In this document: one piece after another, positions 23,528-34,253 of the stretch
Layout of the letters: each line of letters opens with the position of its first letter
How positions within the stretch are numbered: position 1 is the stretch's first letter
From: Caldisericia bacterium
GTDB taxonomy: Bacteria > Caldisericota > Caldisericia > JAAYUI01
Direction of reading: 5' to 3'
Assembly: GCA_017999835.1 (NCBI GenBank)
Contig: JAGNLA010000006.1
Span: 1-64,000 of the forward strand
DNA: 64,000 nt
Notes under the pieces: generated by a model
Told to the model about the DNA's origin: nothing
What the model saw: the letters and a program-made list of their open reading frames with translations, nothing else
Databases searched by the model: none
Made by a program: the position numbers and the translations under genes

Positions 23528-24007
23528 ATGGACAGTGTGTTTTGGATAATCGAAAGATCGCTTTGTGGGAGGCCTGGGCCAGCAGAATCTCCGTGGAATG
23601 TTAACGAACTCTACGATGGCGGCATCAGGGCGATTATTTCACTTGACCAAGATGACGTTGACCATCAGGCGATTAATGACGCCGGTATTGAACATATGTC
23701 TTTTGCCCTGCCCGATTCAATCCCACCAACTGATGAAGATGCAACGCTCTGGCAGAAGGTTTTGCCTCAAGCCTTCAACTATATTAAAAAGTGGACGTCT
23801 GACAGCCAAGGTGCCATAATGGTTCACTGTCATGCCGGGAAAGACAGGACTGGAGTGCTTTTGGGGTCATACTTAACCATTGTTGAAGGACTTGATCCGA
23901 AGGATGCGTTTTCAAGGCTAAGAGTGGCCAGACCTGTGGCGATGACCTCAGAAGGTTATGAAGCATTCTTTTTTGATCTTATGTATAAAATCAAGCATCA
24001 AAGATAG
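23528..24007 (+). CDS. Dual-specificity/tyrosine protein phosphatase
   Basis: P-loop HCHAGKDRTG (CX5R) and a length of 159 aa. Confidence 0.8.
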   Translation: MDSVFWIIERSLCGRPGPAESPWNVNELYDGGIRAIISLDQDDVDHQAINDAGIEHMSFALPDSIPPTDEDATLWQKVLPQAFNYIKKWTSDSQGAIMVHCHAGKDRTGVLLGSYLTIVEGLDPKDAFSRLRVARPVAMTSEGYEAFFFDLMYKIKHQR

Positions 24008-24534: not shown

Positions 24535-27478
<2,944 letters not shown>

Positions 27479-27553
27479 TTTATATAAAACCTACATAGTT
27501 TTCAGAGCACCGCTTCGTGTAAAATTGAAAAGGCGAAAGCTTTTATTCAAAAA

Positions 27554-27674
<121 letters not shown>

Positions 27675-27748
27675 CTTTTTGCATTTCTGCCAATTACTAT
27701 AGTTGATTTTTATTTGTAATAAAATAATATCTTATAAGGTGCTAGAGA

Positions 27749-29016
27749 ATGAAAACACTACGCTTTATAGATCTTTTTGCTGGATTAGGTGGCACAAGAA
27801 TCGGTTTTGAAAATGCTTGCAAGAATAACATGTTTAACTATGAATGTGTCTTTAGTAGTGAAATAAAACCATATGCAGTTAAAGTTTATAAAGAGAACTT
27901 TAATGAATCTTCATATTGTGATATAACTAAGGTTAATTCTAAGGATATTCCAAATTTTGATTATTTATTGGCAGGATTCCCATGCCAATCATTTAGCAGC
28001 GCAGGTTTAAAACAAGGCTTTAATGATGTAAGAGGTAATCTTTTTTTGATATAATAAGAATATTAAAAGATAAGTCACCGAGAGGATTTCTACTTGAGAA
28101 TGTTGATGCTCTTTTGGTACATGATAAAGGAAAAACATTTAATGTAATTAAAGAAAATCTTGTTAACTTAGGTTATGACGTTGTTTATTCTATATATAAC
28201 TCAAAAGACTTTGGAATACCACAAAACAGAAAACGTTTATATATCTGGGGTACAAAAAATAAAAATTCTAGATTCGAAATTATTAAAAAAGAGAAAAAGG
28301 TTATTAATGATATATTAGAAGATAATATTGAAAATGATAAGTCTGCTTTTATAGACTATTTGTTAAAAATGTACCCTATCGATTTTTTAATCGGAAAATC
28401 AATAAAAGACAAACGTGGTGGACACACCAATATTCATAGTTGGGATTTAAATTTAAAAGGTGAAACAACAACTGAACAAAAACGATTGTTGAATATGTTA
28501 CTAAAAAAAAGAAGATTGAAAAAATGGGCAATTAATAAAGGTATTAATTGGATGGATGGTATGCCATTAACATATAACGAAATAAGTACTTTTTATTATT
28601 CAGAAAACCTACTATCTATTCTTAATGATTTAACTAATAAAGGATATTTAAAATATGAGCACCCTAAGGAGTTAATAACTGTAAATGGAATAAAAAAAAG
28701 AGTTTATGCAAAAGATAAAGAGAAAGGTTATAATATTGTAGCTGGAAAATTATCCTTTCCAATTGCTCGAATACTTGATCCATTTGATATTTGTCCAACA
28801 TTAGTGGCAACAGAAGTTGGAAAATATGTAATTCCAACCACCAATGGGTTAAGAAGATTTACAATTAGAGAAGGGTTAAGATTGGCAGGATTTCCAGATT
28901 CATATAAATTGGATTTTTTATCATACGATGAGGCCTTTGATTTATTAGGAAATACAATTACTCCAATTGTAGTAGAAAGCATATTAGATAAGGTAATAAA
29001 AGATGAATGCAACTGA
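27749..29016 (+). pseudogene. DNA (cytosine-5) methyltransferase, frameshifted at a T7 homopolymer
   Basis: Motif I DLFAGLGGTRIGF and motif IV GFPCQSFS lie in frame 1 (27749-28054). ENV (RGFLLENVDALL) and QNRKRLYIWG lie in another frame that continues to 29016. One extra T in the T7 run at 28041-28047 would restore RGNLFFDIIRILKD... Confidence 0.85.
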
Positions 29017-29656
29017 AATAAAAAATTTATTAGAATCTACGGTATTATTTAATAAAGGTAGTATAGAATTTACTTTAGCGAATATAAAAACGATTATAGG
29101 GGATATAAATATAGTTGGTAATGTAATCCAAGATTGGTTGAAAGAGTTCTTTAATAAAAATTCTATTTATTATCGAATTCCTTCAAACACACAAGAATTT
29201 CCAGATTTTTTATTAAATACAGATAGCGACAAGTTGGATTTATTAGAAGTAAAATGTTTTACTAAAAGTCCTAATTTTGATATTGCAAACTTTTCAGCTT
29301 ATTGCAGATCATTAATTTGTAATGCATATAGATTAAATTCTGATTATTTAATATTTGAATATTCTCAATGTGATAATAAAATGATTGAAATTCAAAATAT
29401 TTGGTTAAAAAAAGTTTGGGAAATATGTGGATCTTCAGAAAGAGCACCTATAAACTTGCGATGGAAACAAAACCAGATATACAATATTAGACCTATAAGA
29501 TGGTTTTCAGATAAGAACAAAAATAAGCCTTTTAAATCTAGATTAGAATTTATAAATGCACTCGAATCTGTCTTGAAGCAAGATTCACATTACCAAAAAA
29601 ATTGGAAAAGAATGGTCATTGATAATTACTACAGCGAAACAGGCCAAGAGTTATAA
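29003..29656 (+). CDS. Putative type II restriction endonuclease (PD-(D/E)xK)
   Basis: It overlaps the MTase by 14 bp. It contains FPDFLL...DLLEVKCF (PD...ExK), has very low GC, and has no other homology clues. Confidence 0.55.
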   Translation: MNATEIKNLLESTVLFNKGSIEFTLANIKTIIGDINIVGNVIQDWLKEFFNKNSIYYRIPSNTQEFPDFLLNTDSDKLDLLEVKCFTKSPNFDIANFSAYCRSLICNAYRLNSDYLIFEYSQCDNKMIEIQNIWLKKVWEICGSSERAPINLRWKQNQIYNIRPIRWFSDKNKNKPFKSRLEFINALESVLKQDSHYQKNWKRMVIDNYYSETGQEL

Positions 29657-29801
29657 GAACTTTGATGACTGTATGTGTTTATTATCTAAGAGATAATATA
29701 TAGTTAAAACCCAAAAATTATACTACCCACGAGATTTATTCTGGTGGGTAGTACCTGATTCAGTAATTATTAAGATAAGTGTTAAACTAACAGCGAAGCT
29801 G

Positions 29802-30143
29802 TTAGATACTAAACACCTGCTTTATCTTCGCCTCGAGCATCTGCTTTGGCACGGCACCGATGAGTGTGTCGACTCTCTTGCCGCCGTCAAAGAAAATCAG
29901 GCTTGGGATCGAGGTCACGCCGTTTGCGCTGGCTGCTCTCTGCTGCTCGTCCACGTTGATCTTGCCAAATGTCACCTTGTCGCCCATCGTGCTGGCAAGC
30001 TCCTCAAAAATCGGGGCAATCATCCTGCACGGTCCGCACCAGGGAGCCCAGAAATCCACAACAACCTTTTTGCCAGACTTCACTGCTGCGTCGAAGTCGT
30101 CATCTGTCATGTGCACTACGCTCATCATATCCTCCAATTGCAT
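29802..30143 (-). CDS. trxA: Thioredoxin
   Basis: WAPWCGPC active site and a length of 113 aa. Confidence 0.92.
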
Positions 30144-30304
30144 CTTTCAGGGATAATGCTTATCCTGAAAATGTTTTTTCGTTCTTGACATAAATTTTAG
30201 TCAAGCCATTGGCACATGCAAGTACCCAGCTGTTAAGTTTGTCAAGTTTGTATAAAGCTTTGATGCCATTGACAAAAATAACGCCTTGGGTGGCTGCCGG
30301 AAGG

Positions 30305-30910: not shown

Positions 30911-32428
30911 TTGGAAAGTTTTGCGGCAGCGGCAGTTGTAGTTGCCTTGGGAATTCTGCCGTTTGTTGCGCCAAGGAATAAAAATACTGTCAGAGATGTT
31001 ACTATGTTTGTTGCGGCCAGACGGAAACCGTTGCTGACCAACAGTGACGCAGAAACAGCGAAAAGGTTTGAAATATCCTTTGATTCGACAAGCAGTCTTG
31101 CCTATGTATCAAACCCACTTGATGGCACGGTGATGAGGTTTGACGAAAATGGTCAATATTTCTACAACACAAAACTATGCAAGACTTTTATTTTGAACGA
31201 TTGTCCACCTGTAACATGGAGTGACCTAAATGGATATGTAAAAAAGAATAACTTTATAGATATCGATTACATAACCGATTCAATAAATCACAACGTTTTT
31301 GTGCCAAACGAAGGCTACATGTTTGCCAACCCGAAAGAAGCCACGCTTTTTGAACCGGTCCAGACGGCTGTCTTTGAGGATGCCAAGAACTGGCGGGAGT
31401 ATGTGATTGATAGAGCCGGCAATAAGCTCCTGAGTTTTGCCCATTTTGAAAGCAAAGAAAAATGTGATAGATATTCAAAAGTTTTGTGGTCTGTCCCTAA
31501 AAATAAAATGATGGGTAATGCACCAATTGGAGAAGACAACTACAGTTTCTCAGGTCCATCAGGTGTGTGCGTAGATGGAGTCGGCAATGTTTATGTGGCT
31601 GACACCGGTAACGACAGGATAATGAAGTACAGCTCCAAGGGCGAGTTCCAGAGTGTTTTCCAGCCAGGATTTGACAAACCCAGGGCAGTGGCCGTAAATG
31701 CCTATGGGAGCAGCATTTTTGTATGCGATTCAAACAATAAGAGGGTTGTGGCAATTGATACAAAGACAAAAAAGACAATCCTGACTGTCACCAATGCAAA
31801 ATTTGCCAATCCTGATGCAATCTGCCTTGATGCCCAAGGGGCAATCTGGGTAGGCGATTCGGTCTCAAACACGCTTTTCAAATTTTCAGGAACAAAGACC
31901 AAAAAACCCGGAGTTCCGGTTTTTGCTGTCAACGATGTCCTGACAAGCAAGAAATTCCCCAGGACAGTTCTTGAAATGGAGCTTATGAGGTACTCCTGCA
32001 AAAGAAACGAACAAACTGTAAAAATCAGACCCTATGCGCAGTATAAAAACAAGATTCCGTGTGTACCTATAGAATTTGTCTTTGACAACCTAATTAAAGA
32101 TGAGTCCAGGGGCGGCCTCGAAGGTTTCTCTTGTACCTTCGACGTAAACACAAAATGCCTGACAGTAAATGTTCCAGAAATCCAAGTCGGTGAAGGCAAG
32201 ACACTTGAAAAAAGAACAGTGTCCCTGTGCGTCGATTGTGACATGGCCACTGTCAATGGCAAAGACGTTTTGCTTTCAGGCAAGGTGACGATAATTGGTG
32301 GATCTGTTTTTGCCCCGGCCGTTGATCTGACGAAGCTCTTTGGGGTTGAGGTGTCTTTCAAGGAACCAAAAACTGAGCCGGTAACGCGTCGTCTTTCCAT
32401 GACGCTGGTTTTTCCTCCGATAAAATAG
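30911..32428 (+). CDS. NHL-repeat protein with C-terminal Cu-amine-oxidase-N1-like domain (paralog 1)
   Basis: TTG start after a GAGGAGG RBS. NHL repeats (GVCVDGVGNVYVADTGNDRIMKY, IFVCDSNNKRVVAID, IWVGDSVSNTLFKF). The C-terminus (IRPYAQYKNKIPCVPIEFVFDNL...GGSVFAPAVDLTKLFGVEV) is stalk-like. Confidence 0.7.
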   Translation: MESFAAAAVVVALGILPFVAPRNKNTVRDVTMFVAARRKPLLTNSDAETAKRFEISFDSTSSLAYVSNPLDGTVMRFDENGQYFYNTKLCKTFILNDCPPVTWSDLNGYVKKNNFIDIDYITDSINHNVFVPNEGYMFANPKEATLFEPVQTAVFEDAKNWREYVIDRAGNKLLSFAHFESKEKCDRYSKVLWSVPKNKMMGNAPIGEDNYSFSGPSGVCVDGVGNVYVADTGNDRIMKYSSKGEFQSVFQPGFDKPRAVAVNAYGSSIFVCDSNNKRVVAIDTKTKKTILTVTNAKFANPDAICLDAQGAIWVGDSVSNTLFKFSGTKTKKPGVPVFAVNDVLTSKKFPRTVLEMELMRYSCKRNEQTVKIRPYAQYKNKIPCVPIEFVFDNLIKDESRGGLEGFSCTFDVNTKCLTVNVPEIQVGEGKTLEKRTVSLCVDCDMATVNGKDVLLSGKVTIIGGSVFAPAVDLTKLFGVEVSFKEPKTEPVTRRLSMTLVFPPIK

Positions 32429-32678
32429 CAATCCAACAATCATAGCCACGACGTAGCGTTGTAGTTCCTCGATTTTGATTGCCATGTTGTTTTTTTGATT
32501 TCATAAAAATTAAGGAAGAAAAATCAAAACATTGTGTAACTTTATAATGATGATGGATTAGTGGCGTCTGCATAACCAACGGTTTTGGTTCAGATTTTAA
32601 CAAAACACCTTGCTGGTTTCGTTGATTTTAACAGATGTTAAATTATCCTGAAACGTAACCCACCAAGGAGGTGAGTCA

Positions 32679-34253
32679 ATGAAGAGATTTTTGAAAGTGA
32701 CACTGCTAGTAGCCCTTGCAACCGTGCTTGGACTTGGAACAATTGCCATCCCGAACAACAAAACAAACGCCGAAGACGTGGAGATTTTTGGTGTGGCAGC
32801 CAACAGCTTTGGATATTACATCCTCGTGGCAAATCCAAAGACAAACACAGTCCAGAAATATGACCTTAACGGCAATTTCCTCAACGACTTCATCAAATGG
32901 TTCTCCCCACAGGAACTTGATGGCCCAGACGATCCAGTTGGCGCATGCCCAACATGGAAGTATGAAGGCCTCATCGCCGTCTCAATCTGCCGTATCACTG
33001 ACATGACAGCCGTCACTGACTATAAGCTGAGAAAAGTCTTCACCATCAACCCAAACGTCACACCTCACCACCCAATTGGCGACCCGTCAAAGAATGAACT
33101 CGAACTCCCATGGCACGCCTCGGAAACAGAAGTCTCAGACGACATCGGAAACTACGTCATCGACATGGTTGGCAACAAATATGTCAGATATGACCCGCCA
33201 GCAATTAATTTCGACAAATCCGCTGTTGAGTGCGAGGTTTATGCAAAGCCAAGATATTCAGTTCCAGCAGGATACATCAACAAACCAGCCCCGGCAGGCA
33301 CAGAGCAGGGACAGTTCAGCTCACCGGAAGGCATCGGCGTTGACAGACGTGGATTCATTCTTGTAGCAGACACTGGCAACAACCGCATCCAGAAGTTCAG
33401 AAGAGACGGCTCATTCTTTGCCGAATTCAAGGCAGACTTCAACAAGCCAGTTTACGTTATTCCTGACTTCAACGATGACTCGCCAAACAGATACTACATT
33501 GCAGACCAGGGCAACCACAGAATTGCAGTCTTTGACGAGAGAAACTTAAAGCTTGTCACTGAGATAAAGCCGACCAACGCAGATGGAACGCCACTTTTCG
33601 ATAAGATCGTCGCCGTCGCCATCGACATGGATTATAACATCTGGGTGGCAGATGTTGGAACAATGTGCCTTTACAAGCTCTCATCAATCGACTCGAAAGA
33701 GCCGGGCAAACTTATGCTCAAGATATGCAATGTTCTTGACACACCACCAATCTACACACACGTCTCAAGAATCGAACTCAAGAAGTACTCAGCAAGAGTT
33801 GATGAGTCAACCGTCAAAATCAGACCGTACGCCCAGATAGTCGGTGGCAGAACGATGGTTCCGCTCCGCTGGATTGCTGACAATGCTCTCTCCAACAAGA
33901 CAAAGAAGTTTGGTCCTATTTATAATACAACCGTTGAATGGGATGCAAAGACAAGATGCGCAACATTCACAATGCCTGAAATCAAGTTCAGTGACAAGCT
34001 GACATACCCAAAGAAGGTCGTAAAGGTTTGCATAGGAAACCAGACAGCCGAAGTCAATGGTCAGCCGGTCAAGATTGATGCCCCGCCGGTAATCATTGAC
34101 GGTTCAACGTTCGTTCCGCTTCGTTTCATTGCCGAGGCATTCGGTGCAGAAGTTAGGTACAAAGAGCCAAAGACTCAGCCGGTCACAAAGAACGGAGAAT
34201 GCATGATCATCATGCCGTCTACCGAAAAAGTGAAGGCAGCTTACGGAAGATAA
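32679..34253 (+). CDS. NHL-repeat protein with C-terminal Cu-amine-oxidase-N1-like domain (paralog 2)
   Basis: Signal peptide, then NHL repeats (GIGVDRRGFILVADTGNNRIQKF, YYIADQGNHRIAVFD, IWVADVGTMCLYKL). The C-terminus (IRPYAQIVGGRTMVPLRWIADNAL...DGSTFVPLRFIAEAFGAEV) is stalk-like. Confidence 0.8.
   Translation: MKRFLKVTLLVALATVLGLGTIAIPNNKTNAEDVEIFGVAANSFGYYILVANPKTNTVQKYDLNGNFLNDFIKWFSPQELDGPDDPVGACPTWKYEGLIAVSICRITDMTAVTDYKLRKVFTINPNVTPHHPIGDPSKNELELPWHASETEVSDDIGNYVIDMVGNKYVRYDPPAINFDKSAVECEVYAKPRYSVPAGYINKPAPAGTEQGQFSSPEGIGVDRRGFILVADTGNNRIQKFRRDGSFFAEFKADFNKPVYVIPDFNDDSPNRYYIADQGNHRIAVFDERNLKLVTEIKPTNADGTPLFDKIVAVAIDMDYNIWVADVGTMCLYKLSSIDSKEPGKLMLKICNVLDTPPIYTHVSRIELKKYSARVDESTVKIRPYAQIVGGRTMVPLRWIADNALSNKTKKFGPIYNTTVEWDAKTRCATFTMPEIKFSDKLTYPKKVVKVCIGNQTAEVNGQPVKIDAPPVIIDGSTFVPLRFIAEAFGAEVRYKEPKTQPVTKNGECMIIMPSTEKVKAAYGR

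Follow-up and report, generated by a model that had tools for sequence, protein, structure and literature searches.

A frameshifted methyltransferase gene beside an open endonuclease gene: a probably decaying NlaIV/NgoBV-type restriction-modification cassette in a Caldisericia genome

Background

Restriction-modification (R-M) cassettes that fall out of use usually lose the endonuclease gene (R) first, leaving an orphan methyltransferase gene (M), and pseudogenised M or R genes are common in REBASE-annotated genomes. In the phasevarions and phase-variable R-M genes of Neisseria, Haemophilus, and Helicobacter, a homopolymer within the methylase open reading frame (ORF) sets the reading frame. 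NlaIV, a restriction enzyme of Neisseria, recognizes GGNNCC and cuts blunt (PMC3388099). The locus described here lies in a stretch of 64,000 nucleotides from a Caldisericia bacterium (assembly GCA_017999835.1, contig JAGNLA010000006.1, positions 1 to 64,000), hereafter the window, and consists of an AT-rich block inserted between the 5S rRNA gene (rrf) and trxA that carries one M and one R gene. An original prediction, made from the letters of the window, read M as broken at a run of seven Ts (T7) and R as intact, a combination that ought to kill the cell. It offered as ways out a phase-variation switch, a sequencing error, or an endonuclease that is itself inactive or finds no cognate sites in the genome.

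The cassette adds a new, though damaged, member to the well-known NlaIV/NgoBV R-M family, to which the NCBI annotation already assigns it. The locus is probably a recently inactivated, decaying Type IIP cassette of this kind, residing in a strain-variable intergenic spot. The evidence lies in a shared lesion in M, separate lesions in R in two sister lineages, and an abundance of target sites in the host DNA.

Results

M is read in two frames. The first (27749-28054, plus strand), encoding an N-terminal fragment of 101 amino acids (aa), carries motif I (DLFAGLGG) and motif IV (GFPCQ) and ends at a premature TAA (28052-28054). The remainder lies in another frame of the plus strand (28048-29016), which stays open to a stop at 29014-29016 and contains ENV and QNRKR, the target-recognition domain, and motifs IX and X. 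Insertion of one T into the T7 run at 28041-28047 yields a 422-aa protein reading RGNLFFDIIRILKD, which bears out the claim that motifs split between the frames are rejoined by a single nucleotide. The repaired protein matches PF00145 over residues 4-417 and profile positions 1-323 of 324 (E 2.5e-81; 274 bits against a cut-off of 22), and matches TIGR00675 dcm still more strongly (E 1.8e-96; 323.7 bits, cut-off 100.65). By profile and alignment, M is a C5 cytosine DNA methyltransferase gene of the Dcm family that is truly frameshifted.

The repaired protein aligns with full-length homologues without a gap over the repair point, where R95, G96, L98, F99, and F100 are invariant. DLFAGLGG, GFPCQ, LENV, QNRKR, and LGNT all fall at invariant columns of a 62-sequence alignment, and motifs I (FxGxG), IV (PCQ), VI (ENV), VIII (QxRxR), and X (GN) are complete. 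Nowhere does the protein deviate at a column that is at least 99% conserved in this alignment, and the frameshift is the sole visible lesion; this lack of other deviations argues that the decay is recent. As found, M is neither one uninterrupted ORF nor a pair of fragments that jointly carry all the motifs. A split, two-subunit methylase was considered and rejected, as the first ATG, GTG, or TTG of the second frame is the TTG at 28114, and motif VI falls between the premature stop and this first available start. Because the TTG comes after ENV, the fragments cannot make a complete split enzyme.

The T7 tract is found in two independent Logan assemblies besides the window. Contig L002, from ERR14064717, matches window positions 27588-30278 with two single-nucleotide polymorphisms (SNPs) and one indel, and L008, from SRR11088395, matches 27731-28644 with one SNP (I67T). 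Both carry T7, and the three T7 haplotypes (window, L002, and L008) are mutually distinct by SNPs. A chimeric assembly of the island was likewise considered and rejected, L002 being an independent contig that spans 5S, island, and trxA. No intact, near-identical M was present among 5.8 billion proteins, in which the best match was 60% identical over its full length and one partial match 66% identical, and no T8 allele of the window's M occurred in any protein or contig found. In exact-sequence clusters, M was represented only by its 101-aa and 300-aa fragments and by two products of 75 aa from a 260-bp relic of the gene. A metagenome scan for the tract at variable length (GTAAGAGGTAATC N5-11 GATATAATAAGAAT) gave no match, nor did a metagenome scan for the 5S 3' junction.

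Relatives of M point to the state from which T7 arose. The nearest, on contigs L011 (GCA_023145025.1, JAGLEM010000087.1) and L012 (ENA ERZ23498500, scaffold_11415), come from other Caldisericia, share 70% nucleotide identity with the window, and are 99.9% identical to each other. Both read AATCTTTTTTTTGAT and CTTTTTTTTG in frame, with a T8 run in the codons AAT CTT TTT TTT GAT. As read from these relatives, the ancestral, in-frame state of the tract is T8. Farther relatives have TTATTCTTT at this point, or TTATTTTTT with a run of only T6 (L006 and L007 are T6 or interrupted). Because distant relatives interrupt or shorten it, the long T run probably results from the choice of codons in AT-rich DNA and is no conserved device. 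Runs of this length are common in the island, which holds three 7-runs and two 8-runs, and T8 is kept in one close relative clade. The tract is nonetheless a simple repeat inside the ORF that sets the frame, with T8 restoring it; among the three samples (window, L002, and L008) no polymorphism in its length was seen. A programmed -1 frameshift was also considered and rejected: the tract contains a U UUU UUG heptamer, yet no downstream structure follows (z = -0.6), a slip gives Leu at invariant F100, and the relatives are in frame.

Compared to M, the damage to R is less conspicuous. R occupies 29003-29656 of the plus strand as an open ORF of 217 aa, whose product matches PF09564 RE_NgoBV (E 2.9e-48; 164.8 bits, cut-off 25) and the solved structure of NlaIV, 6qm2 (E 4.9e-41 over residues 9-209), and is annotated by NCBI as an NgoBV family restriction endonuclease (MBP7732957.1). 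The PD-(D/E)XK catalytic motif, P67-D68 ... E82-V83-K84, is encoded at 29201-29254. D68, E82, and K84, identical in 118 of 118 homologues and aligned to the PPD...EVK of NlaIV, are all present; a lack of such residues had been named as something that would undo the prediction. By analogy with the family, the specificity of the enzyme would be GGNNCC.

The claim that the endonuclease is intact holds for its open ORF and its catalytic residues, but not for all of its family-invariant residues. Codon 153 (29459-29461) is CGA and encodes Arg, where Gln stands in all 118 homologues, in NlaIV (at about residue 163 of the chain, within INLQVK), and in the relatives L011, L006, and L007. The substitution, Q153R, falls in a C-terminal strand that also bears the invariant residues K155, N161, and R163. 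Two contigs of a sister strain, L002 and L013, have CAA (Gln) where the window has CGA (window position 29460), and because the sister strain keeps Gln, the substitution is polarized as a change in the window lineage. The sister strain has a lesion of its own: the A7 run at 29407-29413 is replaced by A8, an allele reproduced in two runs, and R is cut to 162 aa. Over 2.7 kb the window and the sister strain show three differences, two of which are in R and both of these radical. Thus both sampled lineages share the broken M, and each has its own lesion in R. We infer that cleavage has been lost through Q153R or through some other change that is shared.

An inactive endonuclease matters because of the host DNA of the window (1-27684 and 29790-64000; 62 kb), which contains 100 GGNNCC sites, or about one per 620 bp. 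With sites so plentiful, an active and unprotected R would be lethal, and the reasoning that an inactive M and an active R should not coexist was sound. Survival for want of cognate targets was rejected as an explanation. The Markov expectation is about 150 sites, and the modest shortfall lies mostly in hexamers that contain the avoided GGNCC or GGCC; the other GGNNCC hexamers are mildly low (88 observed versus 106-120 expected). In the same host DNA, a second-order Markov model gives 234 expected occurrences of GGCC versus 114 observed (z -7), 172 of GGNCC versus 63 (z -8), and 293 of GATC versus 177 (z -6). This under-representation of short palindromes suggests long-term pressure from other restriction systems.

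The cassette was acquired horizontally by a Caldisericia lineage, being foreign by composition and having relatives scattered over many phyla. As the original prediction described, the AT-rich pair follows rrf and precedes trxA, with a GC content of 27.4% over 27685-29800 versus 44.7% in the host part of the window. The lowest 2-kb GC windows of the 64 kb start at 27.6-27.9 kb (0.27), and the minimum elsewhere is 0.35 (mean 0.448, standard deviation 0.027). Relatives of R occur in many phyla and also on small plasmids and phage contigs, and homologues of M are found in cyanobacteria. Each of the closest M homologues (L006, L007, L011, and L012) has an RE_NgoBV gene after it, the order seen in the window. 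For instance, in a Rickettsia endosymbiont (L006; AP029170.1, 813916-823184) the M-R pair is embedded in the structural module of a prophage, with a capsid/protease gene on one side and terminase and portal genes on the other, and prophage carriage of this sort is one way in which such cassettes travel. Intact pairs with 70% nucleotide identity to that of the window occupy other loci in L011 (1-1688) and L012 (8491-10421), beside genes with Cu_amine_oxidN1 domains. Since intact pairs stand at different loci in these Caldisericia, the NlaIV/NgoBV-type family circulates within the class.

How the cassette entered this locus was considered in the light of its flanks. The block contains no integrase or recombinase gene, and no flanking direct repeats of an att-like kind were found around it; site-specific integration at the 5S gene was rejected on these grounds, and the remark that rRNA 3' ends are integration hotspots finds no support at this locus. 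The island is present in the sister-strain contig L002, and the gap is nevertheless variable, as contig L004 (Logan SRR30230058_200981) is 98.9% identical through trxA, ceases to be homologous at about 29790, and has no R-M block there. In its place L004 has a different hairpin and then the 3' end of a DUF4411 (PIN-like) gene (961-1186; E 2.6e-8). The gap between rrf and trxA looks like a strain-variable spot for defense-type cargo.

Remains of the cassette also occur elsewhere. Contigs L009 (934-1193) and L010 (900-1159), from JGI 3300045340 and 3300045339, respectively, hold a 260-bp fragment that is 100% identical to window positions 28062-28321, in the middle of M, within unrelated DNA where it adjoins an N6/N4 DNA methylase gene and an IS1595-type zinc-ribbon ORF. 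This fragment is a relic of the same cassette, further eroded. A scan of genome contigs with a neighboring 505-aa NHL-repeat protein returned only an unrelated match from Planctomycetota, at 32% identity.

The acquired block extends over 27685-29790 on the plus strand, approximate limits that follow from composition, the span of L002, and the end of homology to L004. M and R are its only genes, both on the plus strand. The end of M and the start of R overlap by 14 nt, and a Shine-Dalgarno-like TAAGG lies 9 nt 5' of the ATG of R. Directly upstream, in the same orientation, is an rRNA operon made up of a full-length 23S gene (24552-27478, plus strand; Rfam RF02541, 2609 bits) and the 5S gene (27557-27673, plus strand; RF00001, 92 bits, model positions 1-120). 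A long stem around the 5S gene, supported by inverted repeat I2 and the RNA fold of 27540-27700, pairs 27545-27565 with a 3' arm at 27664-27684, and because this arm ends there, host sequence extends to about 27684. A scan for promoters and terminators gave nothing beyond shuffle expectation, and no terminator-like site was found between the 23S-5S operon and the cassette. At the other end, a hairpin on the minus strand (29721-29753; inverted repeat I18, fold z-score -2.9), with 14-bp arms followed by a T-rich run, is probably the terminator of trxA (29802-30143, minus strand), the right-flank host gene, whose identity as a thioredoxin comes from a Pfam match of an identical product.

Farther from the block, the upstream neighbor of the 23S-5S pair is a dual-specificity phosphatase gene (23528-24007). 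The window holds no 16S rRNA gene and no tRNA (ARAGORN: 0 tRNAs), and the rRNA genes of the source, a Caldisericia metagenome-assembled genome (MAG), appear to be unlinked. At 30911-34253, two adjacent paralogous genes encode NHL-repeat beta-propeller proteins that carry copper-amine-oxidase N-terminal-like domains at their C termini. On L011 and L012, this domain is also found beside the R-M pair, and it appears to be typical of these Caldisericia genomes.

Discussion

The history that we regard as probable is one of stepwise loss. The cassette comprises a C5 cytosine methyltransferase gene followed by the gene of a PD-(D/E)XK blunt cutter of a family recognizing GGNNCC. M probably lost one T by slippage (T8 to T7), such that translation halts after motif IV, and this lesion is fixed in every sampled population. 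The cell would survive since R no longer works; in the window lineage the reason would be Q153R or something earlier that has left no visible trace, and in the sister lineage R is frameshifted at the A7 run, now A8. Of the three ways out offered by the original prediction, an endonuclease that is itself inactive is the best supported, given Q153R against Gln in 118 of 118 homologues and the A8 frameshift of the sister strain. R would have been inactivated before, or alongside, the loss of M. Two orders of events can be envisaged: R may have been silenced first in each lineage, after which the mutable T8 slipped in parallel, or both lineages may have inherited T7 with R already inert, the later damage being neutral.

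Several points weigh against this history. If T7 is shared by descent and the R lesions are lineage-specific, M was lost before these R lesions, and an M that was lost first requires either that R had been silenced earlier by something else or that T8 became T7 in parallel. A loss of activity through Q153R is a prediction from conservation, and R keeps the catalytic PD...EVK motif and the other 25 columns without variation among 119 sequences. Moreover, among the 118 other family members, 13 likewise depart from the family at one column that is at least 99% conserved, so that Q153R alone is no proof of inactivity. The view is limited to 64 kb of the genome, and a second protective methylase elsewhere is possible. 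The samples number three or four and were compared at the level of assemblies.

One rival reading is that R is still active but harmless, because another methyltransferase covers GGNNCC or an overlapping motif, or because R is hardly expressed when translation of M stops about 950 nt upstream. We consider this unlikely. It accommodates the open R ORF with its catalytic motif and invariant residues, and the 14-nt overlap of M and R makes some coupling of expression conceivable. The strong avoidance of GGCC, GGNCC, and GATC in host DNA is also in its favor, because such avoidance implies that other R-M systems, and hence other methylases, have figured in the history of the lineage. However, no other ORF with DNA methylase motifs was found in the 64-kb window by a crude regular-expression search and tblastn, R has its own Shine-Dalgarno-like sequence, and the radical changes to R in both sampled lineages would go unexplained. 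A second rival is that the system is still in use, through phase variation of the T run in M (and perhaps of the A run in R) or through slippage of RNA polymerase or ribosomes on T7 that yields enough methylase; this is decidedly unlikely. To its credit, the lesion lies in a homopolymer that is T8 and in frame in the nearest relatives, the R homopolymer varies in length between samples (A7 versus A8), M has no other lesion, and the position of the cassette right after the 23S-5S operon, in the same orientation and with no terminator-like site between, means that its transcription could be high.

Against a system still in use, T7 was found in three of three samples and a T8 allele in none, 7-8 runs are frequent by chance in DNA of 27% GC, and the farther relatives break the tract or hold it at T6; the switch invoked in the original prediction is not supported on these grounds. 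Slippage fares no better, as no stimulatory structure lies past the run and a ribosomal -1 slip would alter the invariant F100. Nor is Q153R a reversible switch. It is more doubtful still, and in our estimate quite improbable, that the T8/T7 of M and the A7/A8 of R act as a pair of slipped-strand switches in a Type II system transcribed by read-through from the 23S-5S operon, which would cycle through R+M+, R-M+, and R-M- while leaky transcriptional slippage bridged the transitions. If this were true, an uncultured, deep-branching phylum would harbor a Type IIP system subject to phase variation. Finally, sequencing or assembly could have miscounted the homopolymer, M being really intact; such miscounts are a frequent artefact, and the window comes from a MAG. 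We find this scarcely credible: because T7 recurs in two further samples that were assembled independently and differ from the window by SNPs, the frameshift is not a sequencing error, a possibility that can be regarded as effectively refuted, and the A8 allele of R was likewise reproduced in two runs.

In the decaying cassette that we favor, the apparently lethal genotype of a MAG is explained without anything new, and the locus has little import beyond annotation. It does illustrate that an open reading frame is an insufficient test of an intact restriction gene, and it is a modest natural case of R-M decay, the homopolymer lesion in M being common to two sister lineages whose R lesions differ. 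As an apparently strain-variable site for defense genes in this Caldisericia population, the rrf-trxA gap may be of modest use for mapping defense-island hot spots in uncultured phyla.

Comparison with described systems

The NlaIV and NgoBV systems of Neisseria, which are Type IIP, resemble the cassette in that R belongs to the same PF09564 family, the PD...EVK motif is conserved, and the partner is a C5 methyltransferase. Unlike these systems, the cassette resides in a Caldisericia host, its M is frameshifted, and its R carries Q153R and is about 39% identical to the Neisseria gonorrhoeae copy; its specificity is a presumed one, carried over from the family. The pair in L011 and L012 is the nearest relative, with 70% identity at the nucleotide level, 66% at the amino acid level for M, and 64% for R. 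Its genes stand in the same order, its codons at the slippage site are identical, and its GC content is below that of its host. In contrast to the window, both of its genes are open, with T8 in frame in M, Gln153 in R, and an A6 run where the window has A7, and the pair lies beside Cu_amine_oxidN1-domain genes rather than between rrf and trxA.

Phase-variable methyltransferase genes share with the M of the window a frame-setting homopolymer inside the ORF. The tract of the window differs in being short, of a length common by chance, not conserved in the family, and monomorphic in three samples. Furthermore, the system is a Type IIP one with a separate nuclease, for which an OFF state of M would be lethal unless R were also off. 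Orphan and decaying R-M cassettes offer the closer likeness, with one or two point lesions in a well-kept M-R pair, atypical GC content, strain-variable presence, and relics elsewhere. The cassette departs from them in one respect, namely that here it is M that is visibly broken, whereas the R of the window strain is only subtly damaged.

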